NCBI GenBank assembly: GCA_964567625.1
Contig: CAZMNK010000005.1
Coordinates: 343 to 64,342, forward strand
Length of the DNA stretch: 64,000 nucleotides
From: an uncultured Enterobacterales bacterium
GTDB lineage: Bacteria > Myxococcota_A > UBA796 > CAJQPC01
Direction: 5' to 3'
Part shown: positions 8,891 to 53,203 of the stretch, one piece after another
Position numbering within the stretch: the first letter of the stretch is position 1
Layout of the letters: the number at the start of each line of letters is the position of its first letter
Notes under the pieces: model-generated
What the model saw: only the letters and a program-made list of their open reading frames with translations
Database searches by the model: none
What the model was told of the DNA's origin: nothing
Position numbers and translations under genes: made by a program

Positions 8891-9005
8891 TACACCTCCA
8901 TCGAGGGCGGACTGTAGCACGCAGACCCCGGGGGTTAGCGCCTGGGGGATCCCAGGGTCAAGGTGGAGGGAAAGGCTTCTTCCTGCGGAACGAATCGGGG
9001 TTTCG

Positions 9006-20240: not shown

Positions 20241-21028
20241 CTCTGCAACCACCAGCGGGCCACCACTCGGTAGAGGCGCATCACGGGTCGCTGGAGCCAC
20301 AGGGGAGACAGGCGTGCATGCCAGGCCAGGATTCTCCCGATGAGGCCGATCAGGACAACGGGCCTGTCTCGCTCCAGCCCATTCAGGCCGGCCCTGGCGA
20401 CTTGCTCGGCGGTGACGAATAGCCAGCCTGGTGGCTTTTGTAGGCCCGCAAAGGCCACATCGAAGAAGGGGGTGTCGACGGGACCTGCGGCCAGGAGCGT
20501 CACCGCCACGCCCGTGGAGCGGGTCTCGATCCGCAGGCTCTCGCTCAACACGAAGAGAAAGGCCTTGGTGCCGGAATAGGCCGCCATGTCCGGCAGGGGG
20601 CCGTAGCCAGCCACAGAGCCCACGTTCAGCACCCCGCCCCGTCCCCGGGCGACCATTCCCGGCAGCCAGCCGTGAATCAGCTGTAGGGGCGCCTTGCAGT
20701 TCAGGTCCACCATTGCCAGTGCCTGCTTTCCGTCTGCCTCCAGCAGGGGCATGCCCATGCCGACTCCTGCACAGTTCACGAGGATGTCGATGTCGGGGTG
20801 GCGATGAAGCAACCCGTCGATCGCTCGGGCATCACACAGGTCCACGCACTCCACCATCGTCTCGCAGGACAGTTCTCGAGCGAGGACCTCCAGGCGGTCC
20901 AGGGAGCGTCCCAAGAGGACGATCCGGGTTGTTCCCCGGGCACAGAGTTCTCGGGCCAGGGCGGCGCCGATGCCCGACGATGCCCCGGTCACGACCGCGG
21001 TCGCCCCGACCAGTTCCAAGCTCACCAC
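20237..21028 (-). CDS. SDR family oxidoreductase
   Basis: 263 aa. TGASSGIGAALAREL cofactor motif. YSGTK (YxxxK) catalytic motif. Confidence 0.85.
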   Translation of the reverse strand: MVSLELVGATAVVTGASSGIGAALARELCARGTTRIVLLGRSLDRLEVLARELSCETMVECVDLCDARAIDGLLHRHPDIDILVNCAGVGMGMPLLEADGKQALAMVDLNCKAPLQLIHGWLPGMVARGRGGVLNVGSVAGYGPLPDMAAYSGTKAFLFVLSESLRIETRSTGVAVTLLAAGPVDTPFFDVAFAGLQKPPGWLFVTAEQVARAGLNGLERDRPVVLIGLIGRILAWHARLSPLWLQRPVMRLYRVVARWWLQR

Positions 21029-21041
21029 GAAGACAGGGCTG

Positions 21042-23249
21042 CTAATTCCGGGGCTTGTATGCCCGCAGCCGCTCGATGCTGGTGAGACGGTAGGTGCGGC
21101 GAGCGGACTTGCCCAGGTCCAGGGCGACCATGACCTCGTCTCCGGCGGGGGTGATCGCCAGTCGTTCGGGGTTGACCTTGCACGTCACGCGCTTGCCGTC
21201 CCGGGCCAGGTAGAGCACCTCCATGTGCTGGCCGCCGCCCAGGGCATCCTCGATGAGCATCCTGGCTTCCCGGGGAGAGACCCTCGGGGGCTGGTCTTTC
21301 CGCTTCTTCTTCTTTCGCGTATGGCCGGCACTCGAGCCGGGCACGGCCTGGAGTTCCGCCGGCAGCGTGTCGGCGGCATGGGCCCGTGCCTGGGGATTCT
21401 CGGAGACCTCCCGGGCCTCGACGACCAGCTGGAGCAGCCGCTCACGGGCGCTGACCTGGTCGGGGGTGCCGGGGTAGCACTTGGTCTGGAGGGCGGGAGA
21501 GAAGCCCGAGCCGCCCAGGACCTCTCGGATCTCGTCGAGCTTGTTGCGGTCGACCGCGTACAGCCCGGGGGTAAACCGGTGGAGCAGGAAGGGCTTGAGC
21601 TCTCGCATACTCTCCAGCTTGCGGATCCGGCTGCGATGCACGCTCAGCAGGACGGTGTCATGGAACTCCACGTCGCCGTGGTGGCCCATCCAGCCCTTGA
21701 GGGTCTGTTCGACGTTCTCGGGCAGGCCTGTCTGGCAATTGTCCCGCAGGAAGTCCAGCACATCGTCTCGGCGCCAGGTCTTCTCCAGGGCGCGTTCGAT
21801 CGAGATCTCGGTGACCTTGTAGGTGTTGGCCCGGTCACAACCGACGAGCTCGCAGATCTCGCCGATGCGGAAGAGCAGCAGCGGCGCCAGACCTGCTGGC
21901 GCCATGATCTCGAAGCTTGGGGTCAGGTAGAAGGCGGTGAATCCGTCGTCTTCGGGGGGCTCAAGGAGCGCCTGGGCCCGGGGAGTGAGCTTGTAGAACT
22001 TCTCCTGGCCCCACTCGCCAAGCTCGATCATCCCGCAGTTGACCAGGGGTGCAAAAGAGAACGACTCGCGCTCGTTGGTGCGGGTCGGGGCGTACTCACC
22101 CTTGTGGAAACGGGTGCGCCAGTCCTCGCCGCGATTCCACCTGCGGTACAGGTTCGACAGCGGGCGTTCGGGCACCCACTCCCCTTTGCCGCTGTGCACG
22201 GCCCAGAGGATCCACTCGGCGTAGGAGAAGCGACGGTCCAGGGACCGGAAGATCAGGTCTCGCTGGTCCTGGGGGTCCAGGTTGAGCCACTCCTCGACGA
22301 CCTCGCGGTTCACGCTGATGTGATCCCCGCGCAACTCGACCAGTCCGTGCAGGATCAGGAAGTCCACGTGGAAGTGGAACAGCTCGGCGCTGGTGTCCCA
22401 CAACTGCGCGAAGAAGGTGTCCATCTCCTCCTGGTGGGCCTTGTAGATGTCGTGTTGCTGGGTCAGTCGGGGCGGTCGCTGGTCGATGTAGGTGCACAGC
22501 GTCGCAATGGAGAAGTCCAGCGGTGGGCAGAACGGTCTGTGGTCCCGAGCGCGGACATCCTCGTGGGCAAATGTCGGCACGCCGAGTTCGACCTTGAGGT
22601 GCTCGATCATGTGGTCCACGAGGGGGTCGGGAACCAGGTAGAAGAAGTGTCCGTCCTGTGTGGCTGTGGCCGCCAGCAAGCCCTTGTCGGCCAGGGTGAT
22701 CATCACCTTCTGCCACTCGCGCTCGTGGCCTCCAAGGGACAGCCCAAGCTCCCGGTGGAACTCGTCGGCGTGGGCCAGGCCTCCACACTGGAGGAGCGTC
22801 GCCAGGGCGGTGCGTTCCCGCTCGTGCATGGACTTGAGCAGGTTGCCCATGCGGTTGCCCTGGGCCACGGCACGGACGGTGAGCTGCACGAGTCGATCGT
22901 GGTCTGGAACCCGCTTGGGCTGGCCGCCCAGGCCCCGGTACAGGGCGTGCAGCAGGTTCTCGGGCAGCTGGGTGACGTAGCCGGAAAGGTCTTCCAGTTC
23001 GGCGCGGGACAGGCGCCGCCGACGGGTCAGGCCGGTGACTGCTGCGGAGCGCCGCCGCCGACTACGCCGGCGCCGGACATTTCGGCCGCCGTTCGGGGTC
23101 TTGACCCCCTGGTGGCCGTCGCCGGATCGATTGCCGCCACGGCCTCGCCGTCCGCGTCGGTTGCGTCGCCCGCCACCACCGCCTTCCGACTTTCCGGGGT
23201 CTTTTTTTTCCTGGCCTTCCGACTTGCCGGTGCCTTGAACCTGTTCCAT
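21042..23249 (-). CDS. XPB-associated protein: Arg/Gly-rich N-terminal tail, TFIIH p52/Tfb2-like (helicase-associated) core, WYL-like C-terminal domain
   Basis: 735 aa, 49 bp downstream of XPB, GGAGAG RBS. GFTAFYLTPSFEIMAP...VTEISIERALEKTWRRDDVLDFLRDNCQTGLPENVEQTLKGWMG parallels the remembered p52 C-terminal region. N-terminus GGGGRRNRRGRRGRGGNR...RRRRSRRRRS. C-terminus MEVLYLARDGKRVTCKVNPERL...RRTYRLTSIERL follows the WYL-domain pattern. Confidence 0.6.
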   Translation of the reverse strand: MEQVQGTGKSEGQEKKDPGKSEGGGGGRRNRRGRRGRGGNRSGDGHQGVKTPNGGRNVRRRRSRRRRSAAVTGLTRRRRLSRAELEDLSGYVTQLPENLLHALYRGLGGQPKRVPDHDRLVQLTVRAVAQGNRMGNLLKSMHERERTALATLLQCGGLAHADEFHRELGLSLGGHEREWQKVMITLADKGLLAATATQDGHFFYLVPDPLVDHMIEHLKVELGVPTFAHEDVRARDHRPFCPPLDFSIATLCTYIDQRPPRLTQQHDIYKAHQEEMDTFFAQLWDTSAELFHFHVDFLILHGLVELRGDHISVNREVVEEWLNLDPQDQRDLIFRSLDRRFSYAEWILWAVHSGKGEWVPERPLSNLYRRWNRGEDWRTRFHKGEYAPTRTNERESFSFAPLVNCGMIELGEWGQEKFYKLTPRAQALLEPPEDDGFTAFYLTPSFEIMAPAGLAPLLLFRIGEICELVGCDRANTYKVTEISIERALEKTWRRDDVLDFLRDNCQTGLPENVEQTLKGWMGHHGDVEFHDTVLLSVHRSRIRKLESMRELKPFLLHRFTPGLYAVDRNKLDEIREVLGGSGFSPALQTKCYPGTPDQVSARERLLQLVVEAREVSENPQARAHAADTLPAELQAVPGSSAGHTRKKKKRKDQPPRVSPREARMLIEDALGGGQHMEVLYLARDGKRVTCKVNPERLAITPAGDEVMVALDLGKSARRTYRLTSIERLRAYKPRN

Positions 23250-23298
23250 CTTTCTCTCCGGGATTGCAGGGCCTCTGAGTGGAGCGCCGGGGGCGCCG

Positions 23299-24987
23299 TC
23301 AGCTCGCAGCCCGCTCCTCGATGGTGTAGCGATAGCCTTGCTCAGTGAGGAACAACTGTCGCTTCAGTGCGAAGTCCTGTTCCTTGGTGTCACGGGTAAT
23401 GACAGTGTAGAAGTGGGCCTCTCCGCCGTCTTTCTTGGGACGCAGGATTCGACCCAGGCGCTGGGCTTCTTCCTGGCGAGAGCCGAAGCTCCCCGAGATC
23501 TGGATGGCGACGTTTGCGTCGGGAAGATCGATCGAGAAGTTCGCGACCTTGCTCACCACCAGGACAGGGATCTTCCCATGCCGGAACCCGTTGAAGAGCT
23601 CCTCTCGGCGCTTGTGCGGCGTCTTGCCTGTGATCAGGGGAGCCCGGATCATCTTGGCGACCTGCTCCAGTTGGTCCACATAGGTCCCGATGACCAGGAT
23701 GTGGTTGCCCTCGTGGCGGTTGAGTAGTTCTCGGATGGCCCCGAGCTTGAGTGGGTTGACCGACGCCATCTTGAACTTGCGGTTCTCGTCGGTATTCTCG
23801 TACTTCTGGGCATCGCCGTTGTTGAATCCGACCCGGACCTCGTGACAGCGGGCTTCGGCGATGAAGCCACCATCCTCGAGCATCTGCCAGGGCAGGTCAT
23901 AGCGCTTGGGGCCGACCAGGGAGAAGACATCCCCCTCTCGGCCATCCTCGCGCACCAGGGTCGCGGTCATTCCCAGCCGTCGACGGGCCTGGAGGTTGGC
24001 GGTGGCGCCAAAGACAGGCGCAGGCAACAGGTGGACCTCGTCGTAGATCAGCAGGCCCCAGTCCTGGTCGGTGAACAGGTGAAGGTGCTCGAACTCGGCA
24101 TCCCTCGATCGGCGCCAGGTCATGATCTGGTAGGTCGCCACGGTGACCGGCCGGATCTGCTTGGTGGACCCCATGTAGGCGCCGACCTGGGCGGAGGTCA
24201 GGTGGGTCTTGTCGATGATCTCGCGGACCCACTGGTTTACCGCGGCGGCGTTGGTGGCCAGGATCAGCGTGTGGGTCTGGACCAGGTTCATGGTCTGCAG
24301 GGCCACGATGGTCTTGCCTGCACCGCAGGGCAGAACCACCACGCCGTGCCCGCCGGAAGGCTTGCCATCCAGGAACCAGCGTTCGGCCGCCTCGACCTGG
24401 TAGGGGCGCACGGCAAAGGGCTTGCCGTTGCTCTTCATCTTTGTTCGAAGGGCGACGTCCAGGTGTGCGCCGGGCAGGAAGCCGGCCAGGTCCTCGATGG
24501 GCCAGTTGGCCTGGAGAGCCCGCTGCTTGAAGATGCCGCGGTGTCCGGCGTCAATGGCCCAGTGCCGCCGGCCGTCCTCGACAAGGAGCTCTCGAATCTC
24601 CGGCAGGTTGGACACCACCTTGGCGATGTAGGTGGTGGCAAAGTCGAGCCGGATGAGGCTCGCCGGGTCGGTGGGGTGTGGCACCAGCTTGACGAGCCCG
24701 TAGCGCTCGATGGTGTCGCTGACCGAGTCCACGACATTCTGGGGAATATCGAACTTCGTGAACTCTCGAAGCTCGTCGACGATGTCCGCGCGACTCAATC
24801 CGGAGGAAGCGGCATTCCACAGGGACAACGGTGTGATTCGGTAGGTGTGCAGGTGCTCTGGGGACGCCTCGAGCTCCGCGAAGCGCCCGAGCAGATCTCG
24901 CGCAGCCTCGTACCGAGGATGCTTTGTCTCGACCAGGACCTTTCCGTCGCCCTGGACGATGACCGGATTTTCAGGCCGGACTTGCAT
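23299..24987 (-). CDS. XPB/ERCC3-type SF2 DNA helicase/translocase
   Basis: 562 aa. N-terminal XPB-specific region (VIVQGDGKVLVETKHPRYEAARDLLGRFAELEASPEHLHTYRITPLSLWNA), Walker A LPCGAGKT, DEVH box (IYDEVHLLPA), helicase C motifs. Confidence 0.85.
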   Translation of the reverse strand: MQVRPENPVIVQGDGKVLVETKHPRYEAARDLLGRFAELEASPEHLHTYRITPLSLWNAASSGLSRADIVDELREFTKFDIPQNVVDSVSDTIERYGLVKLVPHPTDPASLIRLDFATTYIAKVVSNLPEIRELLVEDGRRHWAIDAGHRGIFKQRALQANWPIEDLAGFLPGAHLDVALRTKMKSNGKPFAVRPYQVEAAERWFLDGKPSGGHGVVVLPCGAGKTIVALQTMNLVQTHTLILATNAAAVNQWVREIIDKTHLTSAQVGAYMGSTKQIRPVTVATYQIMTWRRSRDAEFEHLHLFTDQDWGLLIYDEVHLLPAPVFGATANLQARRRLGMTATLVREDGREGDVFSLVGPKRYDLPWQMLEDGGFIAEARCHEVRVGFNNGDAQKYENTDENRKFKMASVNPLKLGAIRELLNRHEGNHILVIGTYVDQLEQVAKMIRAPLITGKTPHKRREELFNGFRHGKIPVLVVSKVANFSIDLPDANVAIQISGSFGSRQEEAQRLGRILRPKKDGGEAHFYTVITRDTKEQDFALKRQLFLTEQGYRYTIEERAAS

Positions 24988-34153: not shown

Positions 34154-35086
34154 CTACTCGGAAGGGGGACGTTCCCGGTACCAGCGCACGGTCTCTGCCA
34201 GGCCATCCCTGAAATCGACTCGAGGTGTCCAGCCCAGTTTCGTCCGGGTGTCCCGGTCATCCAGGGCATAGCGCATGTCCTGGCCTGGGCGGTCGGGACC
34301 GGGCTGCAGGGCCGATGGAGGGCGGCTGCACAGGTCCAGCACCTGTTCAGCGACCTGGCGGTTCTGGCGGGGGTTGCCTCCGGAGAAGTGGTAGGTGCTT
34401 CCCGGCTTTCCTCGCTGGAGCACGGTCACCAGGCCAGCAGCGAAGTCCGACACGTGCAGCCAGTCACGGACCGGAGAGCCATCCCCGTGAATCACCAGGG
34501 GCCCCTGGCCCAGTGCGGCGGCGATCCAGGAAGGGACCGCCTTTTCGGTGTGCTGCCGAGGTCCGTAGTTGTTCGTGCTGCGAACCACGGTGGCCCGGTA
34601 GCCAAAAGCGTGTGCTGTGGCGTGGACAAAGGCCTCGGCGGCGGCCTTGGTGGCCGCGTAGGGGTTGCCCGGTGCCAGTCGGTCCCGGGGGCCAAAAGGC
34701 GGGTGATCGGGGGGGCAGGATCCGAAGACTTCGTCGGTGGAGATGTGCACCGTGTGGGGCACCGCGGCGCGGGCAGCGGCCTCGAGCACGATGCGGGTTC
34801 CCTCGACGTTCGTCTGGATGAAGGTCCTGGGGTCGTCCAGGGACCGGGTCACGTGGGATTCGGCCGCGGCGTGGATGATCGCTCCGGTGCCATCGACCAG
34901 CTTCTCCACCAGGTCCTGGTCGCACACGTCGCCCACCACGAGTTCGAGGTCCAGTCCGTCCAGGTGTTCCCGCCGTCCGGCGTAGGTGAGTTTGTCCAGC
35001 ACGACGACCTGGTGTCGTGCGCTCACGAGTTGGCGGGCGAGTTCGGAGCCGATGAAGCCGGCTCCTCCGGTCAGAAGGACCTTCAC
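34154..35086 (-). CDS. rfbB: dTDP-glucose 4,6-dehydratase
   Basis: 310 aa. MKVLLTGGAGFIGSEL, DKLTYAGRREHL, and YAATKAAAE (YxxxK). Confidence 0.9.
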   Translation of the reverse strand: MKVLLTGGAGFIGSELARQLVSARHQVVVLDKLTYAGRREHLDGLDLELVVGDVCDQDLVEKLVDGTGAIIHAAAESHVTRSLDDPRTFIQTNVEGTRIVLEAAARAAVPHTVHISTDEVFGSCPPDHPPFGPRDRLAPGNPYAATKAAAEAFVHATAHAFGYRATVVRSTNNYGPRQHTEKAVPSWIAAALGQGPLVIHGDGSPVRDWLHVSDFAAGLVTVLQRGKPGSTYHFSGGNPRQNRQVAEQVLDLCSRPPSALQPGPDRPGQDMRYALDDRDTRTKLGWTPRVDFRDGLAETVRWYRERPPSE

Positions 35087-37585: not shown

Positions 37586-39640
37586 ATGAGTACATCCCAG
37601 CCTGCCACCACCGATCGCCTGCTCGGCATGATCGCCGAGCTGCAAGATGTCGAACAGTTCCGTGCCGAGAACTGGGAAGGGAGCTTCGCCGACTACCTCA
37701 ATGTGGTCCGGCAGAACCCCGAGGTCTGCCGAAACGCCTATCAGCGTCTCTACGACCTGATCTGCCGCTTCGGGACCGAGGAATACACCGAGTACAAGAA
37801 GCGGATCGTCCGCTACAAGTTCTTCGACGATCCCTTCGGCCATGGCAAGGACGCGGTCTACGGCATCGACGTCCACCTGATGAAGCTGCTCCATGTGCTC
37901 AAGAGCGCTGCCCTGGGCTACGGCTCCGAGAAGCGGGTGATCCTTCTTCACGGCCCGGTGGGCTCTGCCAAGAGCACGATCGTGCGGCTGCTCAAGAAGG
38001 GCCTGGAGTGGTACAGCCGGCAGCCCGAGGGGGCCCTCTATACCTTCGACTGGGTAATGCCCGATGGCAGTGTGGTCCCCAGTCCCCTGAACGAGGAGCC
38101 GCTGAAGCTGGTCCCCCTGGACATGCGTGTGGCCTTCCTCAAGGAACTGAACCAGGCGACCGAGGGTCGCTACCCCATCGCGCTGGAAGGGGACCTGGAC
38201 CCCGTCAGCCGCTTTTTGTACAAGAAAGGCCTGAAGGAGGTCGACGGAGACTGGAGCCGCCTGATCGAGACCGTGCGGATCCGGCGGGTCATCCTCAGTG
38301 AGAAGGACCGGGTGGGAATCGGGACCTTCCAGCCCAAGGACGAAAAGAACCAGGACTCCACGGAGCTGACCGGTGACGTCAACTACCGGAAGCTGGCGGA
38401 ATTCGGATCGGACTCCGATCCGAGGGCCTTCAACTTCGACGGGGAGTTCTGTGTCGCCAACCGGGGCCTCATCGAGTTCGTCGAGGTGCTCAAGCTCGAC
38501 GTGGCCTTCCTCTACGACCTGCTGGGTGCCAGCCAGGAACACGTGATCAAGCCCAAGAAATTTGCCCAGACCGCCATCGACGAGGTGATCATCGGGCACA
38601 CCAACGAGCCCGAATACCGCAAGCTCACCAGCAACGAGTTCATGGAGGCCTTGCGGGATCGAACCATCAAGATCGACATTCCCTACATCACCAAGTGGCA
38701 TGAGGAGGCCCGGATCTACGAACGGGACTTCCACAGCGACCGGGTGCACAAGCACGTGGCTCCCCACACCCTGGAGATGGCGGCGATGTGGGCGGTGCTG
38801 ACCCGACTCGAAGAGCCCAAGAAACACAACCTGACCATCGCCCAGAAGCTCAAGCTCTACGACGGCAAGATGCTCCCCGGGTTCACCGAGGACAACGTCA
38901 AGGAACTGCGCAAGGGGGCTCGCCGGGAAGGCCTGGGGGGCATCTCTCCCCGCTTTGTCCAGGACAAGCTCTCCAACGCACTGGTGCGCGAGGTCGACGT
39001 GCCGAGCATCAACCCCTTCATGGTGCTCAACGAACTGGAGAGTGGCCTGAACCACCACTCGCTGATCTCCGACGAGGAGACCCGCAAGCGGTACAAGGAC
39101 CTGCTGACCGTGGTGAAGCAGGAGTACGACGCCATCGTGAAGAACGAGGTGCAGAAGGCCATCACAGCAGACGAGGGCGCCATCGCCCGGCTGTGCGCCA
39201 ACTACATCGACAACGTCAAGGCCTACACCCAGAAGGAGAAGGTCAAGAATGCCTTCACCGGGGCCTACGAGGAGCCGGACGAGCGACTCATGCGCTCGAT
39301 CGAGGAGAAGATCGAGATCGCCGATTCCCGCAAGGACGACTTCCGCCGGGAGATCATGAACTACATCGGGGCCCTGGCCGTCGATGGCAAGTCCTTTGAC
39401 TACAAGACCAATGAGCGGCTGCACAAGGCCCTGGAGCTCAAGCTCTTCGAGGACCAGAAGGACAGCATCAAGCTGACCAGCCTGGTCAGCCAGGTGGTCG
39501 ACAAGGACACCCAGGCCAAGATCGACGTGGTGAAACAACGCCTCATCGATCGCTATGGCTACGACGATCACAGTGCGACCGATGTGTTGAACTACGTGGC
39601 CTCGATCTTTGCTCGCGGGGACGCCAAGGACACCGAGTAG
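37586..39640 (+). CDS. prkA: PrkA family serine protein kinase (AAA-like N-domain)
   Basis: 684 aa. [26 protein letters not shown]. Walker [13 protein letters not shown]. High similarity by eye to YeaG/PrkA throughout. Confidence 0.92.
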
Positions 39641-39646
39641 GGCCCG

Positions 39647-40725
39647 ATGCCTCTCCCGATCGAGAACGATCTCTACCGCTTCCGGTCCATCGTCAAGGGC
39701 CGGCTGCGCAAGGATCTTCGCCGGTACATGGGATCGGGAGAGTTGCTGGGCAAGCAGGGGGACAAGGTCGTCTCGATTCCCCTGCCTCAGATCCAGATCC
39801 CCCGGTTCCGCTACGGCAAGAACATGGGAGGGGTGGGCCAGGGCGAAGGCGAAGGCAAGGGCAGTGGCCAGGGCGAGGCAGGTGACCAGCCTGGTGAGCA
39901 CCTGCTCGAGGTGGACATCTCCCTCGAAGAACTCGCGGAGATCCTGGGTGAGGAGTTGGAGCTACCGAACATCGAACCCAGGGGCCAGAAGGAGGTCACC
40001 AGCGCCCGGGACCGGTATGTGGGCATCTCCAGGCAGGGCCCCGAAGCCCTGAGGCATGGGCGGCGGACCTACAAGACGGCGTTGAAGCGCCAGATCGCCA
40101 GCGGGACCTATGAAAAGGGCAACCCGATCGTCATTCCCTACAAGGAGGATCGGCGCTACCGCACCTGGAAGGCCCAGACCAACCCCCAGAGCGCCGCGGT
40201 CGTTGTCTACATGATGGATGTCTCGGGTTCGATGGGCCAGGAGCAGAAGGAGATCGTGCGCCGGGAGACCTTCTGGATCGATACCTGGCTGCGACACCAG
40301 TACAAGAACGTCGTCACGCGGTTCATCATCCACGACGCCGTGGCTCGGGAGGTCGACCGTCACACGTTCTTCCGCACCCGGGAGAGTGGCGGCACCCTGA
40401 TCAGTTCGGCCTACAACCTGGCCATGCGCATCCTGGACGAGGACTACCCGGTCCAGGAGTGGAACATCTACCCCTTCCACTTCTCCGATGGGGACAACTG
40501 GTCGGCGGCGGACACCCGGGCCTGCATGGAGCTGTTGAAGACCAGGATGCTGCCCGTCTCCAACCAGTTCTCCTATGGCCAGGTCGAGTCCGAGTACGGT
40601 TCGGGCCAGTTCATCAAGGACCTGGAGGAACACTTCAAGGAGGAGGAGTCTGTGGTGCTCACGCGCATTCCGGATCGTGACGCGATCATGGATTCGATCA
40701 AGGGCTTCCTGGGAGCGGGAAACTG

Positions 40726-40726
<1 letters not shown>
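39647..40726 (+). CDS. YeaH/YhbH family protein (DUF444, vWA-like)
   Basis: 359 aa. [22 protein letters not shown]; [13 protein letters not shown]. Confidence 0.9.
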
Positions 40727-42246
<1,520 letters not shown>

Positions 42247-42817: not shown

Positions 42818-44593
42818 ATGAGGGGCGTTGTGGACACCCTTCGTCGATACCTCCCCTGGACGGACCTGGCCGGCTACGGTCGAAGGGAGTTCGTTCCAGA
42901 CCTGGTCGCGGCCCTGGCGGTCACCTTTCTCTGCATCCCCCAGGGCATTGCCTACGCGCTGATCGCGGGACTCCCCCCGGCGATGGGACTCTATGCGGCA
43001 GCGCTGCCTGCGATCGTGGCGTCCCTCTTTCGGACTTCGCGCCACCTGGTCACCGGCCCGACCAATGCGGTGAGCCTGCTGGTGGGGTCCGCCTTTGCCA
43101 CGGGTATCTACAGCGATCCTGCGACGGCTGCCGTGACCCTGGCGCTGATGGTGGGGATGCTCCAGGTGTTCGCTGGCGTCCTGCGGCTGGGAACCCTGGT
43201 CGACTACATCTCCGGTTCCGTGGTGCTCGGTTTTGTGACCGGGGCGGCGATTCTCATCGGGGTGGGACAGCTCTCCAATGTGACAGCCACGGCGGGGACG
43301 ACCGGGTCCCTCCTGGTCCAGCTCCTGGCCTGGGGTGGAGACCTGGCCCAGGCGGACGTCCTGTCGGTGGCCATCGCACTGGGCACCGCCGCCACCATCG
43401 TCCTGCTCAAGAGGTTTCTCCCGCGCGCCCCCGCTGCGATCATCGCCCTGGGGCTGGCGACCGTGGTGAGCATGTTCCTGGGCTCTGCCACCAGCCTGCG
43501 CACGGTCGCGGACCTGGCACCGATTGGCGCCAGCTTCCCGCCGGTCACCATGCCGGATCTTGCCCTCCTGTCGGAGTTGTTGCCCCTGGCGGTGGCGGTG
43601 ATGGTCCTGAGCGTCGTGGAGAGCACCTCGATTGCCCGGACGATCGCCACCCGCAGCGGCCAGCGCCTGGACATCAGCGTGGAGTTCACAGGCGAAGGCC
43701 TGGGCAACATCGTGGCGGGTTTCTTTGGCGGCTACCCGGTCACCGGTAGCCTGTCCCGGTCCTCCCTGAACGAACGCGAGGGGGCCCGTACCCGAATGGC
43801 CGGCGTGCTGTCGGGCCTGATGGTCCTGGTGTCCCTGGTGCTGCTGGGGCCCGCCCTGGGGCACATTCCCATCGCCGCTCTGGCCGGCCTCTTGTTGGTG
43901 GTGGCTGCCCGCCTGATTCACGTGGGCGAGATCCTCACCACCCTTCGCAGTCACAGTGGTGATCGAATTGCATTTGCGGCCACCTTGCTGGGGACCTTTG
44001 TGCTCCACCTGGACCAGGCGATCTACCTGGGGGTCGGCATCTCCCTGGTCATGGTCCTGCGCCGTGCTCGCCTGTTGCGCTTCCGTGACCTGGTGATCGA
44101 TGCCCAGGGCCACATTCGAGAGGTCGCCCGACGGGTTCGGGGGGTGCATGCCCCCATTCCCGAGGGTGTCCGCTACTGCGCGAGTGTCCATGTGCTCAAC
44201 GTCGAGGGCAGCCTGTTCTTTGCGGCTGCAGGGGAGCTTCAGCTCGCGGTCGAGGACGTCCTGCGCCAGGAGGACATCCAGGTGTTGGTGCTCCGGCTCA
44301 AGCGGGTCCGAAACCTCGACGTGACCTCGGTGCGGGAGTTGATCAACGTTGCGGCCACCATGGGCCAGAGAGGTGGCAAGCTCCTGGTGGTCGGGGTCAG
44401 CCCGGGCTCGATGTCCTACCTGGGACGGACCGGGGCGATGGAGGTTCTGGGCCAGGAGAACCTCTTTCCCACCAGGGACGACCACTGGTTCGCTGCCCTG
44501 GAGGACGCCCTTCGCGCCTCCCTGGACAGGGTGGGAGACCATGGCTGTGGAGAGGACTGCCCGTACCAGGGATGGCTGTCGGATCGCCGCTGA
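42818..44593 (+). CDS. SulP family inorganic anion transporter with C-terminal STAS domain
   Basis: 591 aa. FVPDLVAALAVTFLCIPQGIAYALIAGLPPAMGLYAA. C-terminal STAS-like VLNVEGSLFFAAAGEL. Confidence 0.9.
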   Translation: MRGVVDTLRRYLPWTDLAGYGRREFVPDLVAALAVTFLCIPQGIAYALIAGLPPAMGLYAAALPAIVASLFRTSRHLVTGPTNAVSLLVGSAFATGIYSDPATAAVTLALMVGMLQVFAGVLRLGTLVDYISGSVVLGFVTGAAILIGVGQLSNVTATAGTTGSLLVQLLAWGGDLAQADVLSVAIALGTAATIVLLKRFLPRAPAAIIALGLATVVSMFLGSATSLRTVADLAPIGASFPPVTMPDLALLSELLPLAVAVMVLSVVESTSIARTIATRSGQRLDISVEFTGEGLGNIVAGFFGGYPVTGSLSRSSLNEREGARTRMAGVLSGLMVLVSLVLLGPALGHIPIAALAGLLLVVAARLIHVGEILTTLRSHSGDRIAFAATLLGTFVLHLDQAIYLGVGISLVMVLRRARLLRFRDLVIDAQGHIREVARRVRGVHAPIPEGVRYCASVHVLNVEGSLFFAAAGELQLAVEDVLRQEDIQVLVLRLKRVRNLDVTSVRELINVAATMGQRGGKLLVVGVSPGSMSYLGRTGAMEVLGQENLFPTRDDHWFAALEDALRASLDRVGDHGCGEDCPYQGWLSDRR

Positions 44594-44617: not shown

Positions 44618-45523
44618 ATGCTGACCCTGACCCTGACCCTGACCCTGCTGTCCTGTACCGGCACAACGACTGGTGACGATTCGGGCCTCGAGCCTGCGTT
44701 GGAGTACGTCTTCTCCTTTGCGCTGATCGCGGATCCCCACATCGTCTCCGACCCGGAGCACGAGGAACGGCTGATCCAGGTGCGGGACTGGCTCGACGCC
44801 GAGGCGGAGGACCGCGGCCTGGAGCTGGTGCTCGTCCTGGGAGACATTGGCTGGGGCGAGGGCCTGGACCGCTCCCACGAGTTGCTGGAGGCGTTCTCCC
44901 TTCCCTGGGTGCCTGTCGCCGGGGACAACATGTTGCATGTGGGCGACGAGGAGCGCTGGCAACAGGTCTTCGACCCCCAGCTGCAGGTCCTGGAAGAGAC
45001 CTTTGACGACTTCCGAGAGGCGCCCCAGCCCACGTACAACCCGGATTGGGAACGGGACTCCTGGTTCGCCAACTACACCTTTGCCCACAAGGGTGTGACG
45101 TTCATGGTGCTGGACTGGTGCTCTCGATCGGACGAACCCATCTACGGGGACACCGCCGATCTGCACGACTTCGAGGGGGGCACCTTTGACTGGTTCAAGG
45201 GGGAGGTGACGTCCCTTGAAGAGGGCCCCGACGAGTCGGTGGTCATGGCCTCACACATGGCCATGCACCTGGGCCCGGGGTCTTTCAACATCGCCATGGA
45301 CGAAGAACTGGAGGGCTGGGCTGGCGCCTATGAGGATCGGCTGGCGCTCAGCGTGGGGGGACACCTGCACCTGGACGTGGACGACACGGCCAGCGTGGGT
45401 GGCTGGGAGGTTCACGTGCTCGATGCCACCTGGGACGACGCGCTTTCCCTGTCCATTGTCGACGTCTGGGGGAATGGTCGGCGACACGCCTACGAGATCG
45501 AGCGGCATGTGCTGGATCGATAG
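44618..45523 (+). CDS. Lipoprotein, calcineurin-like metallophosphoesterase
   Basis: 301 aa. Leader MLTLTLTLTLLSC. FALIADPHIV (DxH), VLVLGDIGW (GD), VAGDNM. Confidence 0.6.
   Translation: MLTLTLTLTLLSCTGTTTGDDSGLEPALEYVFSFALIADPHIVSDPEHEERLIQVRDWLDAEAEDRGLELVLVLGDIGWGEGLDRSHELLEAFSLPWVPVAGDNMLHVGDEERWQQVFDPQLQVLEETFDDFREAPQPTYNPDWERDSWFANYTFAHKGVTFMVLDWCSRSDEPIYGDTADLHDFEGGTFDWFKGEVTSLEEGPDESVVMASHMAMHLGPGSFNIAMDEELEGWAGAYEDRLALSVGGHLHLDVDDTASVGGWEVHVLDATWDDALSLSIVDVWGNGRRHAYEIERHVLDR
44621..44647 (+). repeat. (CTGACC)4-CTG hexanucleotide tandem repeat inside the signal peptide
   Basis: CTGACC occurs 4 times starting right after the ATG. Encodes LTLTLTLTL. Confidence 0.9.
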
Positions 45524-45665: not shown

Positions 45666-45956
45666 ATGCTTCTGACGGAGAAGACCATGCAGCAACTCAA
45701 GACTGACATCAAGGAACTGATCGTTCGCGCTCTCATGCTCGAAGAGGTCTCCCCCGCCGAGATCGAGGACGCAGCGCCTCTCTTCGGGGAAGGGTTGGGG
45801 CTCGACTCCGTGGATGCCCTGGAGCTTGCCATCGAGATCGAGCGGACCTTCAACATCACGATTCCCGATGACGAGGACAACCGGAAGATCTTCCGGTCCG
45901 TGGATACCCTTGCCACCTTTATTTCTGCCAATCGTACAGCGGCTCAGGCCAAGTAG
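45666..45956 (+). CDS. Acyl carrier protein
   Basis: Phosphopantetheine attachment motif GLGLDSVDALELAIEIE. An alternative start, ATG 45687, has GGAG 8 nt upstream (89 aa). Confidence 0.85.
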   Translation: MLLTEKTMQQLKTDIKELIVRALMLEEVSPAEIEDAAPLFGEGLGLDSVDALELAIEIERTFNITIPDDEDNRKIFRSVDTLATFISANRTAAQAK

Positions 45957-45965
45957 GAGCGTGTC

Positions 45966-47309
45966 ATGAAGATCCGTCTGATCTACCCCACCTGGGAACG
46001 AATCTACTACCAGACCAAGTACATTCTCCCGCCCCTGGGCGTCATCACGATGGCCTCGACCATCCCGGGAGAGCACGAGGTCAACCTGACCGATGAGAAT
46101 GTCGAGACCATCGACTTCGAAGAGGATGTCGACCTGGTCATGATCTCCACGATGCTGCTGGCCCAGGCCAAGCGTGGGTGGGAAGTCGCTGACGAATTCC
46201 GTCGCCGTGGCAAGACCGTCGTGCTGGGTGGGCTTTCCGTCACCACCCTGCCCGAGCTGGCTGCCGAGCACGCCGATGCCATCGTCATCGGCGAGGCAGA
46301 GGGGGTGGTGCCCCAGTTGATCAAGGACTTCCAGAACGGCCAGCTCAAGCGTGTCTACCAGCGTCCGGCCTACGTGGCGGGCGACGACATGGAGAAGCCC
46401 CGTCGGGACCTGCTCAACAAGCCCCTGTACAACTACCGGGGTGTCGAGATGCTCGACCTGATCGAGACCACGCGGGGTTGTCGCTTCGGTTGCTACCCCT
46501 GCCAGGTTCCCTTCGTGTCCGGCACCAAGCACCGGATCAAGGCCATCGATCGTGTGATCGAGGAGATGGCCTCCATTCCGAACGAGCGGCTGTTCATCGT
46601 GGACAACTCGCTGGAGCAGAACGAGCAGCACCAGAAGGAGCTGTTCCAGGCGATGATCGACGCGGACCTTGGCAAGAAGTGGGTCGCCCACCCGATCTCG
46701 GTCAAGCCGGAGATCCTGGACCTCGCCGCCCGTTCCGGCTGCTGGTACGTCTACCACGCCATTCACAAGCCCTCGGACCTGATGCGCGAGCGCATCAAGA
46801 TGCACCATGACTTCGGCATCGGTGTCGAGGGCACCATCATGGTGGGCCTGGACAACCACAACAAGGACATCTTCCGCGAGCTGACCGACTTCTTGTTGGA
46901 ATGCGACCTGGACCTGGCGGAGTTCACCGTGCTGACGCCGTTCCCCGGCACGCCTGTCTTCGAGAAGATGAAGTCAGAAGGACGCCTGCTCCACACCGAC
47001 TGGAACAAGTACAACGCCGAGCAGGTGGTCTACAAGCCCGCCCAGATGACCCCCGATGAGCTCCAGGAGGGCTACATCTACATGTGGGATGAGTTCTACA
47101 AGGCCATCCCCGAGCGTCATCGCATGTGGCGGCTGTTCAAGCGCCTCTACAAGCGCCACGAGTGGGCGCCTGTCACCACCGCTCCCGGCGATGCCCAGTT
47201 CCAGGCCAAGGGTGCTCCCGGTGCTCGCCTCTGGGGAGGCGTGGTCCAGGGCAACCGCGACCTGGAAGAGGTCAAGAAGGCTCGGGGCGACAACCTGCAG
47301 AACAAGTAG
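45966..47309 (+). CDS. B12-binding domain-containing (class B) radical SAM enzyme
   Basis: 447 aa, AGGAG RBS. N-terminal cobalamin-binding-type region (DLVMISTM...GKTVVLGGLSVT). ETTRGCRFGCYPC = CX3CX2C cluster motif. Confidence 0.88.
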   Translation: MKIRLIYPTWERIYYQTKYILPPLGVITMASTIPGEHEVNLTDENVETIDFEEDVDLVMISTMLLAQAKRGWEVADEFRRRGKTVVLGGLSVTTLPELAAEHADAIVIGEAEGVVPQLIKDFQNGQLKRVYQRPAYVAGDDMEKPRRDLLNKPLYNYRGVEMLDLIETTRGCRFGCYPCQVPFVSGTKHRIKAIDRVIEEMASIPNERLFIVDNSLEQNEQHQKELFQAMIDADLGKKWVAHPISVKPEILDLAARSGCWYVYHAIHKPSDLMRERIKMHHDFGIGVEGTIMVGLDNHNKDIFRELTDFLLECDLDLAEFTVLTPFPGTPVFEKMKSEGRLLHTDWNKYNAEQVVYKPAQMTPDELQEGYIYMWDEFYKAIPERHRMWRLFKRLYKRHEWAPVTTAPGDAQFQAKGAPGARLWGGVVQGNRDLEEVKKARGDNLQNK

Positions 47310-47331
47310 TCCTCGGGATTGCTGAACCGGT

Positions 47332-47356
47332 CTCCTGCCGAACCTCTCGGCGGGAG
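47332..47356. terminator. Hairpin between convergent genes (10-bp stem with one G-U pair, 5-nt loop)
   Basis: CTCCTGCCGA-ACCTC-TCGGCGGGAG sits in the 50-bp gap between the rSAM stop (47309) and the AOS stop (47360). There is no clear U-tract, so intrinsic-terminator function is unproven. Confidence 0.45.
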
Positions 47357-47359
47357 TTC

Positions 47360-48586
47360 CTACCGGATTCGCTCCAGGACTCCCAGCACCTCGTCGATGT
47401 CCGCCGCCGTGTGGGCCGCGTTGATCTGGAAGCGAATGGTCTGGTCTCCTTCGGGCACGACCGGGTAGTTCAGGCCGACCACCAGCACACCGTGCTCGGT
47501 GAAGCCCTGCACCATGCGCCGGGTCTTCTCGGTGTTTCGGACCATCAGTGGGGTCACAGGGTGTACACCGTCGATGGTCTCCAGCCCCAGGGCGTCGATT
47601 CCGCCCCGGAACTGCGCGATCCGGGCCTGGACGTGCCTCAATCGCTGTAGACCTTCCGCGGAGTCCGCGATGTCCACCGCGGCTTTGGCGGCTGCACAGT
47701 CCGCCGCGGAGAGCGGGTTGGTGTAGATGTAGGTGTCGGCTTTCTGGCGAATCGCCTCGATGACCTCTCCACTGGCTGCGACGAAACCGCCGTTGACGCC
47801 AAAGGCCTTGCCAAAGGTGCCCACATTGATGTCGACCGGGGCACCGGCGACCTCTTCCGTGCCTCTTCCCGTGGTGCCATAGGCCCCGATGCCATGGGAG
47901 TCGTCCACCACGGTGACCAGGCCTTCCTTGAACCGGTTGCGGTGGGGCTCGAGCACCGCGTTGATCTCGGGAATGAGGGCGTGATCTCCGCGCATGGAAA
48001 ACACCCCATCGAAGATGACGATGACTCGCTCGATGGTGTCGGGAATGTTCGCCACGCACTCGGCCAGGTGGGCCATGTCGTTGTGTCGGAAGATCGCCTT
48101 GTTCTCTCGCGGCACGTTGGCGATGCGCATCGCCCGGATGATGCAGTTGTGGTTCAGGGCATCGCCGACCCAGAAGGTCTTCTTGTTCTGCAGGGTCAGG
48201 GCCAGTCCCAGGTTGGCGGTGTAGGCCGAGTTGAAGATCTTGGCGGCGGGCCTTCCCAGGAATGCGGCGATCCGCTCCTCCAGATCCACGTGGGAAGAAA
48301 ACGTGCCGTCGATGAAGCGCACAGCGCCGGGGCCGGCGCCGAAACGATGGGTTGCCTCGTCGGCGGCGTGCATCACGTCGGGGTGGTGGGACAGCGACAG
48401 GTAGCTGTTGCTGTTCATCCGGATGAAGGGCTGGTCCCCGAAACCAGCCAGCTTGTAGCGGGGCCCTCGGTCGCCCGTGGGGGCCAGGTAGTCCACGATG
48501 ACCCGCTCAGGGGCCTTGGCGCGGCCCTCCGCGTGCAGGGCTTCGATGTCTCGGGTCAGGCCGGCATTGAGCCGCGCGAGGGACAT
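47360..48586 (-). CDS. PLP-dependent alpha-oxoamine synthase family acyltransferase (Kbl/BioF/SPT family; substrate not assignable)
   Basis: 408 aa. NSNSYLSLSHHP, GAGPGAVRFIDGT, DDSHGIG, PLP-lysine context VGTFGKAFG. Overall layout resembles Kbl / Thermus AONS as remembered. Confidence 0.85.
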   Translation of the reverse strand: MSLARLNAGLTRDIEALHAEGRAKAPERVIVDYLAPTGDRGPRYKLAGFGDQPFIRMNSNSYLSLSHHPDVMHAADEATHRFGAGPGAVRFIDGTFSSHVDLEERIAAFLGRPAAKIFNSAYTANLGLALTLQNKKTFWVGDALNHNCIIRAMRIANVPRENKAIFRHNDMAHLAECVANIPDTIERVIVIFDGVFSMRGDHALIPEINAVLEPHRNRFKEGLVTVVDDSHGIGAYGTTGRGTEEVAGAPVDINVGTFGKAFGVNGGFVAASGEVIEAIRQKADTYIYTNPLSAADCAAAKAAVDIADSAEGLQRLRHVQARIAQFRGGIDALGLETIDGVHPVTPLMVRNTEKTRRMVQGFTEHGVLVVGLNYPVVPEGDQTIRFQINAAHTAADIDEVLGVLERIR

Positions 48587-51277: not shown

Positions 51278-53203
51278 CTAGCAGCCGTCGTTGGCCCCGC
51301 CGGGGGTGCCCAGATCCCCGTCGCCATAGGGGCTGGTTCCCTCGCACCAGTTGCCGCTGTCGTCGTTCTGCTCGGCGGTCAGGGCCGAGGGGTCCAGGCT
51401 GATGCTGGCACCGACCGGGTCCGGCCAGGTCTCGCCGTCGTCATAGACCACCCGGTCGATCTCCACGCCGCCGTGCAACAGGACCAGCTCGTCGTCGCCG
51501 TTGGCCAGCTGCATGCCGGTTGCGTAGCCATGATCGGCGAGCACACCGCCATTGGAAGAGGTGTCGGCGTCCCTGGCAAAGACGGCGAAGCTTCCCGCAG
51601 GCACCAGTACAGTGGTCTCACTGGGCAGCACAAACCAGTCGGTTCCGTCGTCAGCAAAGGCCCAGTCGCTGCAGATTCGAATGTCGGTGGTGGTGGTGTT
51701 GTAGACCTCAAACCACTCCCCACTGCTGTCGCTGACCAGGGTGGGATCCTTCATCATCTCGGTCACGATCAACTCACCCGTCGCGATCAGTCCTTCGTCA
51801 CAGGCCCCATTGCAGTCGTTGTCGAGACCGTCGCGAACCTCGGTGGCACCGGGACTGATGGTGTTGTCGCCGTCGTCGCAGTCCGAGCCCCCCTGCTCGA
51901 TGGCGTCGTGACCGTCCCCGTCGGCATCGTTGTCGCTCCAGTCGTCGCAGTCGGTGTCGACACCGTCGTACCAGCTCTCCGTGGCGCCAGGATGGACCCA
52001 GGGATCGCTGTCATTGCAGTCGTCGCCCCCGTGATCCTCGCTGTCGTAGGTGTCGCCATCCGCGTCCAGATCGCTGTCGCCGGCGCAGTCCTGGTCGATG
52101 CCGTCGTACCAGGTCTCCGTGGCCCCCGGGTAGACGGTGGCGTCGTCGTCGTCGCAGTCGATGCCGCCGCTCTCGGTCCCGGTATAGCCGTCGTTGTCGT
52201 GGTCGGTCTCGTCGGAACCATCGCAGTCCTGGTCGATGCCGTCGTGGGCGATCTCGGGTGCGCCCGGGTGTACGGAGAGCTCGTTGTCGTCGCAGTCGCC
52301 GTCGACCTCGGTGAAGCCGTCCCCATCATCGTCGTAGAGCGCCGTGCCCTCGTCGACCCGCTCGTCACAGTCGTTGTCCGTGCCGTCGGCCGCCTCGTCG
52401 GCCTCTGGAAAGGCTGTCTCGTCGTTGTCGTCGCAGTCACCCGTGCAACTGGAGAACCCATCCAGGTCCTCGTCCAGGCAGGGGTCGACGATCACGGTGG
52501 CTTCACAGCGTTGCAGCTTTCCGCGAGGGTCCGTCACCGTGAGGATCAGCGCATGGGTGCCATCCAGTGCGGGTGTCCAGTGTGGGGTCACCCCGCCGGC
52601 GCTGTCGGGTTGTCCCGACCAGATCTCCCCGTCCAGGTTGCTCTCCAGGGTCACGGTCAACTCGGTCTGATCGACCTCGGCATCCCCGACGCTGGCCTCG
52701 ATTGCCAGGGATTCGCCCAGAGCCATTTCGTGGCCATCCTGGGGGAAATCCAGTTCACACCAGGGGGCGGAGTTCGTGTCTGCGACCAGGTGCAGGGAGG
52801 CCTGGCCCGCGCGGCCCCGGGTGTCGATGGCGGTCAGCAGCAGGTCGTGATCCCCGTCGGTCAGGGCTTCCAGCAGCCCCAGGTTTCCACCTGCACAGGG
52901 ACTCCAGCCCTCGTCCTGGGTCCAGAGAATGTCGTCGACGCTGCTGCTCAGGCTGATCTCGAGCACATCGACACTGTCTTCGTCGGAGACCTGGGCGCAC
53001 AGGTTGAAGGCCTCGTCGGGCTGGAAGGAGGCCCCGTCCACAGGGCTGACCCAGGTGACCTGGGGCGGTTCGTCCGTGGAGGAGACCGTCGCATCCAGGC
53101 AGGCGATGAAGAAGGCGTACAGGAGCACGAATCCGACCCTATCCCCCGATACGGGGGGTCGGCCCGTGGAGGCCACGGATCCCCAACGGGTCCCCGGGGA
53201 CAC
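51278..53203 (-). CDS. Secreted/lipoprotein with Ig-like N-terminal modules, five MopE-type Cys/Asp repeats and a C-terminal lamin-tail domain (LTD)
   Basis: About 641 aa. GTG start at 53203 is uncertain; a leader-like RVGFVLLYAFFIAC is present. Repeats such as DCDDDDATVYPGATETWYDGIDQDCAGDSDLDADGD. LTD-like GELIVTEMMKDPTLVSDSSGEWFEVYNTTTTDI. Confidence 0.72.
   Translation of the reverse strand: MSPGTRWGSVASTGRPPVSGDRVGFVLLYAFFIACLDATVSSTDEPPQVTWVSPVDGASFQPDEAFNLCAQVSDEDSVDVLEISLSSSVDDILWTQDEGWSPCAGGNLGLLEALTDGDHDLLLTAIDTRGRAGQASLHLVADTNSAPWCELDFPQDGHEMALGESLAIEASVGDAEVDQTELTVTLESNLDGEIWSGQPDSAGGVTPHWTPALDGTHALILTVTDPRGKLQRCEATVIVDPCLDEDLDGFSSCTGDCDDNDETAFPEADEAADGTDNDCDERVDEGTALYDDDGDGFTEVDGDCDDNELSVHPGAPEIAHDGIDQDCDGSDETDHDNDGYTGTESGGIDCDDDDATVYPGATETWYDGIDQDCAGDSDLDADGDTYDSEDHGGDDCNDSDPWVHPGATESWYDGVDTDCDDWSDNDADGDGHDAIEQGGSDCDDGDNTISPGATEVRDGLDNDCNGACDEGLIATGELIVTEMMKDPTLVSDSSGEWFEVYNTTTTDIRICSDWAFADDGTDWFVLPSETTVLVPAGSFAVFARDADTSSNGGVLADHGYATGMQLANGDDELVLLHGGVEIDRVVYDDGETWPDPVGASISLDPSALTAEQNDDSGNWCEGTSPYGDGDLGTPGGANDGC

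Follow-up and report, generated by a model that had tools for sequence, protein, structure and literature searches.

In a 64,000-nucleotide stretch of contig CAZMNK010000005.1 (assembly GCA_964567625.1, from an uncultured bacterium placed by GTDB in the Myxococcota_A), hereafter called the window, a gene for a stand-alone acyl carrier protein (ACP) is directly followed by a gene for a radical S-adenosylmethionine protein (rSAM) with a B12-binding domain. Our analysis supports the view that these two genes are a real two-gene unit whose relatives lie inside aryl-polyene (APE)/ladderane-like lipid-pigment clusters, which rank with the most widely distributed biosynthetic gene clusters of bacteria. 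On balance, we favor a reading in which the pair is a functional module descended from such type II fatty acid synthase/polyketide synthase (FAS/PKS) clusters and in which the rSAM tailors a chain tethered to the ACP. The cluster type is already known; what is new is an uncharacterized rSAM family, here part of a system that is reduced, unusually, to two genes.

The open reading frame (ORF) list of the window places the ACP gene, the rSAM gene and a neighboring alpha-oxoamine synthase (AOS) gene exactly where the original prediction had put them. The ACP gene (forward strand, 45666-45956) encodes 96 amino acids with the phosphopantetheine serine in GLDSVDALE; one gene caller chose an alternative start at 45687. 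The rSAM gene (forward strand, 45966-47309) encodes 447 amino acids with the cluster motif CRFGCYPC. Direct reading of the sequence reveals an AGGAG ribosome-binding site at 45955-45959, 6 nt before the rSAM ATG at 45966, which overlaps the ACP stop codon TAG (45954-45956), and the gap between the two genes is 9 bp. With this arrangement, the ACP and the rSAM are likely translationally coupled. The description of this gene pair in the original prediction is thus borne out by the ORFs, Pfam searches and the sequence itself.

The adjacency of the two genes is kept in relatives whose rSAM is 85-87% identical to that of the window (loci L001 and L002) and in one at 72% identity (L004), where a divergently oriented ACP gene, its product 48% identical, stands across a 151-bp gap. 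When compared with L001 and L002, the ACP has a dN/dS of 0.10-0.12 and the rSAM of 0.20-0.24; both genes are under purifying selection and are not decaying. An apparent break in the L002 rSAM gene (8472-8547), considered as a frameshift or pseudogene, was traced to 74 consecutive masked N in the genome collection. Because of the coupling, the conserved adjacency and the recurrence of both families in APE/ladderane-like clusters, it is reasonable to connect the pair with a lipid or pigment pathway, and the earlier proposal that the ACP and the rSAM act together stands. The idea of an uncharacterized lipid route, proposed at the same time, is retained in part: the lipid/pigment link is reasonable, but the pair would be an offshoot of long-known, biochemically unresolved APE/ladderane-like clusters.

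The ACP matches PF00550 (E = 5e-9), and NF006617 (PRK09184, "phosphopantetheine-binding protein") is one NCBIfam model whose curated cut-off it exceeds (87.6 bits against 70). In a translated search of annotated plasmids, it was 44-54% identical to proteins that bear the PGAP name "phosphopantetheine-binding protein" and that often adjoin a lysophospholipid acyltransferase (LPLAT). With the ACP at the ApeE position of the Cedecea neteri APE cluster, the first of two ACPs there, it shares 46% identity. The gene order there is chain length factor (CLF), LPLAT, phosphopantetheine-binding protein (of the ACP type considered here), second ACP, hypothetical protein, AMP-ligase, hypothetical protein, family 2 glycosyltransferase (GT2), thioesterase, LolA, MMPL, DUF3261 and ketosynthase (KS). 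This gene order locates that type of ACP at the ApeE position; the window ACP belongs to the ApeE-position carriers of APE clusters, subfamily NF006617, and is not AcpP-like. In E. coli, the 4-hydroxybenzoate starter is loaded onto ApeE, an essential ACP that also bears the chain; ApeF is not essential (PMC8253772). The window ACP is not itself within an APE cluster, since LPLAT, second ACP and AMP-ligase genes were not found nearby in the Pfam scan of the window, which covered candidate ORFs across 0-53 kb and, by precomputed Pfam calls, the first six genes of the nuo region (53.3-64 kb, scanned in part only). Its homologues in Cedecea and in two of the rSAM contexts described below (L019 and L023) do occupy the APE-cluster position, in an LPLAT/second ACP/AMP-ligase neighborhood.

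The genomic contexts of rSAM relatives were surveyed by 12 exact-protein look-ups, which returned eleven distinct contexts besides the window, a small and non-random sample biased to long contigs; a scan of a genome collection with a single-protein query returned three loci. All five sampled family members at 48-59% identity to the window rSAM (L005, L019, L021, L023 and L025) lie inside APE/ladderane-like type II FAS/PKS clusters. The Bacteroidales cluster (L005-7) contains KS, CLF, LolA, an ApeI-like dehydratase, GT2, an MMPL-acyltransferase, an FAD amine-oxidase-like protein, an AMP-ligase and an acyltransferase. On the JGI metagenome contig L019, the rSAM is accompanied by ACP, KS, CLF, BtrH_N, a deacetylase, a second B12 rSAM, a Tes-like rSAM, an ACP-like protein, LPLAT, MMPL and LolA. 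The Syntrophaceae cluster (L021) comprises KS, ACP, AMP-ligase, an ApeP dehydratase, a ketoreductase, LolA, an aromatic ammonia-lyase, a 4HBT thioesterase, DegV and GT2. The ENA metagenome contig L023 carries ApeI, ApeP, an AMP-ligase, two KS genes, two further rSAMs and two ACPs immediately after the rSAM, together with KS-CLF, an FAD oxidase, an ammonia-lyase, a thioesterase and an acyltransferase. On a second JGI metagenome contig (L025), LPLAT and a methyltransferase are followed by the rSAM, an ACP and KS-CLF. The FAD amine-oxidase/phytoene-desaturase-like gene is one of the variable components across these five clusters.

ACPs of the same subfamily as that of the window lie at most 10 kb from the rSAM in L004, L019, L021 and L023, and an ACP stands immediately beside the rSAM in L023 and L025, the one in L025 matching the window subfamily only weakly. 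On NF006617, the cluster ACPs of L019 and L023 score 67-68 bits, and they are 35-44% identical to the window ACP by tblastn. The order metallophosphoesterase-ACP-rSAM seen in the window recurs in L001 and L002, at 85-87% rSAM identity. Taken together, the contexts suggest that the cluster was lost progressively toward the closer relatives of the window rSAM and that the window lineage would have kept only the ACP-rSAM pair.

Several side observations were made on these contexts. At L019:8630-13437, three consecutive radical SAM genes stand in the APE-like cluster: the second B12 rSAM, the member of the family studied here (59% identity) and a Zn-ribbon rSAM, which reaches 330 of the 450 bits required by the model of the tetraether lipid synthase Tes. 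The trio may point to C-C coupling reactions in a bacterial cluster for ketoacyl lipids. Proteins with the BtrH_N/DUF4872 fold (an ACP-dependent acyltransferase fold) are encoded within the same cluster at L019:5391-6467 and at L012:1-1709; in L012-13, the BtrH_N gene and a fatty acid desaturase gene are found about 8-10 kb upstream of a solo rSAM. In the Bacteroidales locus, the region L005:16302-17293 holds a short-chain dehydrogenase/reductase (SDR) gene and a 393-aa Aminotran_1_2 gene cut by the locus end, about 7-8 kb from the rSAM (7.7 kb for the latter gene). This pair might be like serine palmitoyltransferase (SPT) with ketodihydrosphingosine reductase, or like CapB/CapC; tblastn with the window AOS gave no match to the L005 Aminotran_1_2 gene.

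The window rSAM passes the Pfam cut-offs of both B12-binding (PF02310, 36.2 bits against 32.1) and Radical_SAM (PF04055, 36.4 bits against 29.5), and its C-terminal region matches DUF4070. The motif CRFGCYPC (residues 172-179, nt 46479-46502) is a CX3CX2C motif whose cysteines C172, C176 and C179 are invariant in 30 out of 30 homologues. Among the 68 invariant positions there are no other cysteines, so that a single [4Fe-4S] cluster is expected. The best NCBIfam score is that of TIGR04072, the ladderane-associated B12 rSAM, which matches residues 73-259 at 78 bits against a cut-off of 360; the homologues P0019, P0071 and P0075 score 47-63 bits on this model, and P0097 was not among its matches at E <= 1e-10. 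With scores so far below the cut-off, the window rSAM belongs to a family distinct from TIGR04072. The scores also remain below the NCBIfam cut-offs of HpnR, HpnJ, BchE, PhpK, AprD4 and MgmA (the methyl-coenzyme M reductase glutamine methylase), at 37-63 bits against 360-650, and the protein reaches no curated NCBIfam family.

The family itself is compact. It comprises more than 120 clusters formed at 90% identity; none of the best 120 scores below 462 bits, and their identity to the window protein is 48-88%; the few source names available are Planctomycetota, Bacteroidales, Syntrophaceae, Elusimicrobia, Verrucomicrobia/Lentisphaerae and "Deltaproteobacteria". In an exhaustive library at 50% identity, the two top full-length matches score 474 and 454 bits and the next full-length match 255 bits. 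Judged by these scores, the window rSAM is a member of a discrete, sharply bounded and unnamed family. Plasmid-encoded matches were considered as further members and rejected, being only about 29-32% identical and outside the family. In full-text literature searches, neither this rSAM family nor a B12 rSAM within an APE cluster was found described.

An AlphaFold2 (AF2) model of the rSAM, built on the family alignment, has a pLDDT of 85.7 and a pTM of 0.84; its N-terminal domain is beta-alpha, and disorder is confined to a C-terminal tail that starts at about residue 403. This tail (residues ~403-447, window 47172-47309, pLDDT <50) contains a conserved WGG motif, mostly "LWGGV", which is present in most aligned members of at least 51% identity and in the Elusimicrobia protein P0058, and absent from Bacteroidales, Syntrophaceae and P0050-type members. 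A Foldseek search with the model ranks AprD4 first among known structures (TMq 0.74), followed by MgmA, TsrM and CysS. Given the PF02310 match and these fold neighbors, the rSAM is predicted to carry an N-terminal Rossmann-like, cobalamin-type domain, and we infer that it uses cobalamin.

AprD4 is a 1,2-diol dehydratase that has a B12-type domain and yet is not known to use cobalamin. The rSAM could be a cobalamin-independent enzyme of the AprD4 kind, which would carry out a non-methylating dehydration, desaturation, rearrangement or cyclization of the tethered chain. AprD4 is the best match among solved structures by sequence (32 bits) as well as by fold, and the rSAM matches DUF4070, a C-terminal domain typical of the non-methylating B12-rSAMs BchE and HpnJ, whose models it also matches weakly. 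Such a reaction would fit proposals that ladderane-cluster B12-rSAMs make rings (PMC13459092). However, PDB sequence matches of the rSAM are negligible; the identity to AprD4 is only 17-18%; PF02310 is matched above its gathering threshold; and the next fold neighbors, MgmA, TsrM and CysS, are all cobalamin methylases. We regard a cobalamin-independent enzyme as doubtful.

Returning to the favored reading, in which the rSAM tailors an ACP-tethered chain, the ApeE-type ACP would hold a thioester-linked chain on its phosphopantetheine arm. The rSAM, with one [4Fe-4S] CX3CX2C cluster and a cobalamin-type Rossmann domain, would modify an acyl, enoyl or polyenoyl thioester on the ACP. The most probable reaction would be methylation of an unactivated or sp2 carbon; methylation is the commonest outcome of class B rSAM enzymes. 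Alternatively, the enzyme may perform another radical step that forms C-C bonds or rearranges them, and cyclization, rearrangement or dehydration are also open, because AprD4 is the top fold match, BchE and HpnJ are matched weakly and class I methyltransferases co-occur with the rSAM in L021 and L025. In the window lineage the pair would be detached from the rest of the cluster, so that the chain must come from elsewhere; the enzymes that build it may be encoded by a distant APE-like cluster or belong to the housekeeping fatty acid synthase. That the ACP carries the rSAM substrate is our inference, as are the type of reaction and the kind of chain that is modified. Tethering to the carrier arm appears to be supported by the recurrent adjacency of the two families, the apparent coupling of the genes and the precedent of CysS.

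Several observations weigh against this reading. Of three relatives sampled at 72-75% identity, two (L012 and L024) lack an ACP next to the rSAM, which is alone in L012-15 and L024; the ACP-rSAM pairing is thus not obligatory. Class I SAM methyltransferases are encoded alongside the rSAM in L025 and L021, so that the rSAM is no simple replacement for ApeB, the class I methyltransferase proposed to methylate the APE aryl head (PMC8253772). Since AprD4 is the closest solved structure, neither B12 use nor methylation is assured. Full-text literature searches retrieved no characterized member of the rSAM family. Finally, no KS, dehydratase, LolA, MMPL or LPLAT gene was found in the 64-kb window (within the Pfam scan given above). 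No further lipid genes were found among the window ORFs scanned; a polyprenyl synthase gene (13947-14801) and an SDR gene (20237-21028), considered as partner lipid genes, are distant and in unrelated operons.

The lack of cluster genes in 64 kb also speaks for a reading in which the pair needs no APE-like cluster and acts on ordinary fatty-acid-synthase products, to yield a methyl-branched, cyclized or cross-linked, lineage-specific membrane fatty acid. It is in keeping with this that the solo or paired state is kept by purifying selection, that a fatty acid desaturase gene and a gene of the BtrH_N acyltransferase fold are found 8 kb from the solo rSAM of L012, and that the family member of L019 stands beside a Tes-like lipid C-C-coupling rSAM. 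Against it, the ACP belongs to a subfamily, ApeE, that is specific to APE clusters and is not AcpP-like, and a distant APE-like cluster may exist elsewhere in the genome, of which the 64-kb window is our view. We consider this reading unlikely. It is a rather improbable, if attractive, suggestion that the detached pair is a self-sufficient minimal module: supplied with a chain by general fatty acid synthesis, it would add a methyl branch, a ring or a cross-link, and the lineage, which is uncultured, marine and Myxococcota-like, would thereby have a new membrane lipid. If true, the pair would be the simplest experimental entry, with two genes, to the unnamed rSAM family of APE/ladderane-like clusters and a first tractable example of a radical SAM enzyme acting on a lipid of the ketoacyl (non-isoprenoid) kind.

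The AOS gene (408 aa, PF00155, E = 2e-37) lies on the reverse strand at 47360-48586, converges on the rSAM gene across a 50-bp spacer and has its pyridoxal phosphate (PLP) lysine, K260, in VGTFGKAFG. The spacer holds a G+C-rich hairpin of 10 bp (47332-47356). Folding of a 61-nt segment with this hairpin gave -29.4 kcal/mol (z = -3.5, equalled by 0 out of 200 shuffles), and the fold includes a second, 8-bp hairpin. The convergent AOS and the hairpin of the original prediction are hence both confirmed. Lacking a U-tract, the 47332-47356 hairpin was missed by the terminator scan; transcription of both the rSAM and the AOS gene probably ends there.

It had been proposed that the modified chain is possibly fed to the AOS, which would condense it with an amino acid to form a sphingoid, sulfonolipid or aminolipid-type base. 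The genes are adjacent and convergent and have a common hairpin, dedicated ACPs are known to accompany bacterial ceramide synthesis, and the substrate of the AOS is left open by its reaching no curated family cut-off. The AOS is, however, on the opposite strand, and synteny largely refutes this route from both sides. No AOS is found beside the ACP-rSAM pair in L001, L002 or L004, where the downstream genes encode unknown proteins, DUF547, a sulfatase and an HDOD protein. AOS orthologues in L026 (83% identity), L016 (78%) and L017 (74%) are lone genes in three unrelated neighborhoods, with no ACP, rSAM or IMPACT gene within 6-8 kb. No AOS of the window clade is present in any of the five full rSAM clusters. 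Because synteny fails both from the ACP-rSAM loci and from the AOS orthologue loci, the AOS link is rejected; conservation of the neighborhood in relatives extends to the ACP-rSAM part only. We consider the condensation route very improbable, and the AOS is, on this comparison of loci, a chance neighbor of the pair, outside the system.

The sequence of the AOS points in the same direction. Its best PDB matches, aligned end to end, are 2-amino-3-ketobutyrate CoA ligase (Kbl) structures 7bxp (214 bits) and 1fc4 (194 bits), followed by BioF (185), 5-aminolevulinate synthase (184) and SPT (162), with cysteate acyltransferase (125) among the weakest. Kbl-type features aligned with both structures are the NHxxII histidine, DDSH, the PLP lysine, the xIRxQ arginine and VRFIxGT; the motifs GT(F/L)GKA and YPVVPxG...R are shared as well. 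Curated cut-offs were reached neither for Kbl (NF005394, 281.6 bits against 460; TIGR01822, 257.3 against 493), nor for BioF (TIGR00858, 277.9 against 426), nor for 5-aminolevulinate synthase, nor for any SPT model (165-222 against 500-670). Since all curated cut-offs failed and the Kbl and BioF models score equally (282 and 278 bits), we call the AOS an unassigned Kbl-like enzyme; among Kbl, BioF, SPT and sulfonolipid enzymes, Kbl is the one it resembles most.

The insertion relative to Kbl that had been noted in the AOS is present and family-wide, but it amounts to about 8 extra residues over three small gaps at residues ~31-50, and not 19; GPRY at residues 41-44 is invariant, and two further small insertions are found elsewhere. 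The lack of tdh and bio genes nearby was also upheld: neither was found among the window ORFs scanned, no bio genes were found in any AOS context, and no tdh was found within 6-8 kb of the AOS in L016, L017 or L026. Epimerase-family genes near the AOS were considered as an SDR-type threonine dehydrogenase and rejected, the window gene (34154-35086) being dTDP-glucose-dehydratase-like and the L026 gene HpnA-like. The AOS clade is 74-86% identical over at least 120 clusters and always about 407-408 aa long. Such conservation is more in keeping with an enzyme of core metabolism than with one specific to a pathway. The AOS is thus probably a Kbl-like housekeeping enzyme, unrelated to the pair, from a highly conserved unnamed clade.

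Upstream of the pair, a gene on the forward strand (44618-45523) encodes a calcineurin-like metallophosphoesterase (PF00149) with a lipoprotein-like N-terminus. Its synteny with the pair is limited to the closest relatives, L001 and L002; it appears to be a syntenic neighbor. The promoter scan found no σ70-like promoter in 44.4-49.4 kb. No cobalamin or SAM riboswitch was found upstream of the pair, where the sole Rfam match was a chance snoRNA (E = 0.6).

Elsewhere in the window, a putative three-gene operon of PrkA, YeaH (DUF444) and SpoVR, recognized from translations (37586-42246), lies upstream of a SulP-STAS transporter gene (42818-44593). Positions 2041-3899 hold LarC-like (nickel insertion, PF01969) and LarB-like (aminoimidazole ribonucleotide carboxylase) genes of nickel-pincer cofactor maturation, and positions 21042-24987 an XPB/ERCC3-type helicase gene adjoining that of a second Helicase_C_3 protein. 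Two large secreted-looking proteins (6665-8920 and 51278-53203), one with a lamin-tail domain, carry repeated MopE "putative metal-binding" motifs, which are common in Myxococcota. Together with the taxon names of AOS homologues, these motifs hint at a Myxococcota-like origin of this high-G+C lineage.

The analysis delineates a separate, tightly conserved rSAM family for which there is no curated model or solved structure and no characterized member in the literature searched. This family travels with an ApeE-type carrier, and one lineage appears reduced to the carrier and the enzyme. The reduction points to the likely ACP-tethered form of the substrate and to a simple two-protein system for reconstitution. 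In addition, a tempting sphingolipid-like link is removed, and a very highly conserved Kbl-like AOS clade is flagged.

Among known systems, Kbl is the nearest to the AOS, with which it shares an end-to-end alignment and the motifs listed above; the AOS differs in falling below both Kbl cut-offs, in ~8 extra N-terminal residues with GPRY and in having no tdh neighbor in four contexts. The pair itself is closest to the APE clusters (apeA-R of E. coli CFT073, and that of Xenorhabdus doucetiae): the window ACP belongs to their ApeE-position subfamily, and the rSAM homologues stand amid KS/CLF, ApeI/ApeP, LolA, MMPL, LPLAT, GT2, AMP-ligase and thioesterase genes. In contrast, the Cedecea APE cluster has no radical SAM gene, and the core genes are missing from the window, where the ACP stands with the rSAM alone.

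The anammox ladderane and "ladderane-like" clusters, which comprise amxACP, amxFabZ, a FabF pair, a phytoene-desaturase-like enzyme and a B12 radical SAM protein (TIGR04072), served as a second comparison set. They have in common with the present loci a dedicated ACP, an rSAM with a B12 domain, KS/CLF and an FAD desaturase-like gene, as in L005 and L023. The window rSAM belongs, however, to another family than TIGR04072, and ladderane production is not suggested. For the ladderane-cluster rSAM, ketoacyl chains bound to an ACP have been proposed as the substrate (PMC10139942, PMC13459092, PMC2649909); the enzyme is still uncharacterized (PMC13459092, PMC10139942), attempts to express the anammox enzyme having failed (PMC10139942). 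Ladderane-like clusters of unknown function occur in Myxococcota, Desulfobacterota and other phyla (PMC9902471, PMC2649909), and a 2026 review names ladderanes and the Jaw5 product as the only proposed cases of radical SAM chemistry on ketoacyl (non-isoprenoid) lipids (PMC13459092).

The third comparison is with CysS, the cobalamin rSAM methyltransferase of cystobactamid biosynthesis. It differs from the window rSAM in its size (about 625 aa, with extra domains), in its small alkoxy-benzoyl substrate and in its nonribosomal peptide synthetase context, and the identity between the two is 14%. It is nevertheless a class-B-type fold neighbor of the window rSAM (Foldseek E about 1e-13), and, having been crystallized with pantetheinylated substrates, it provides a class B rSAM precedent on a carrier-arm thioester.

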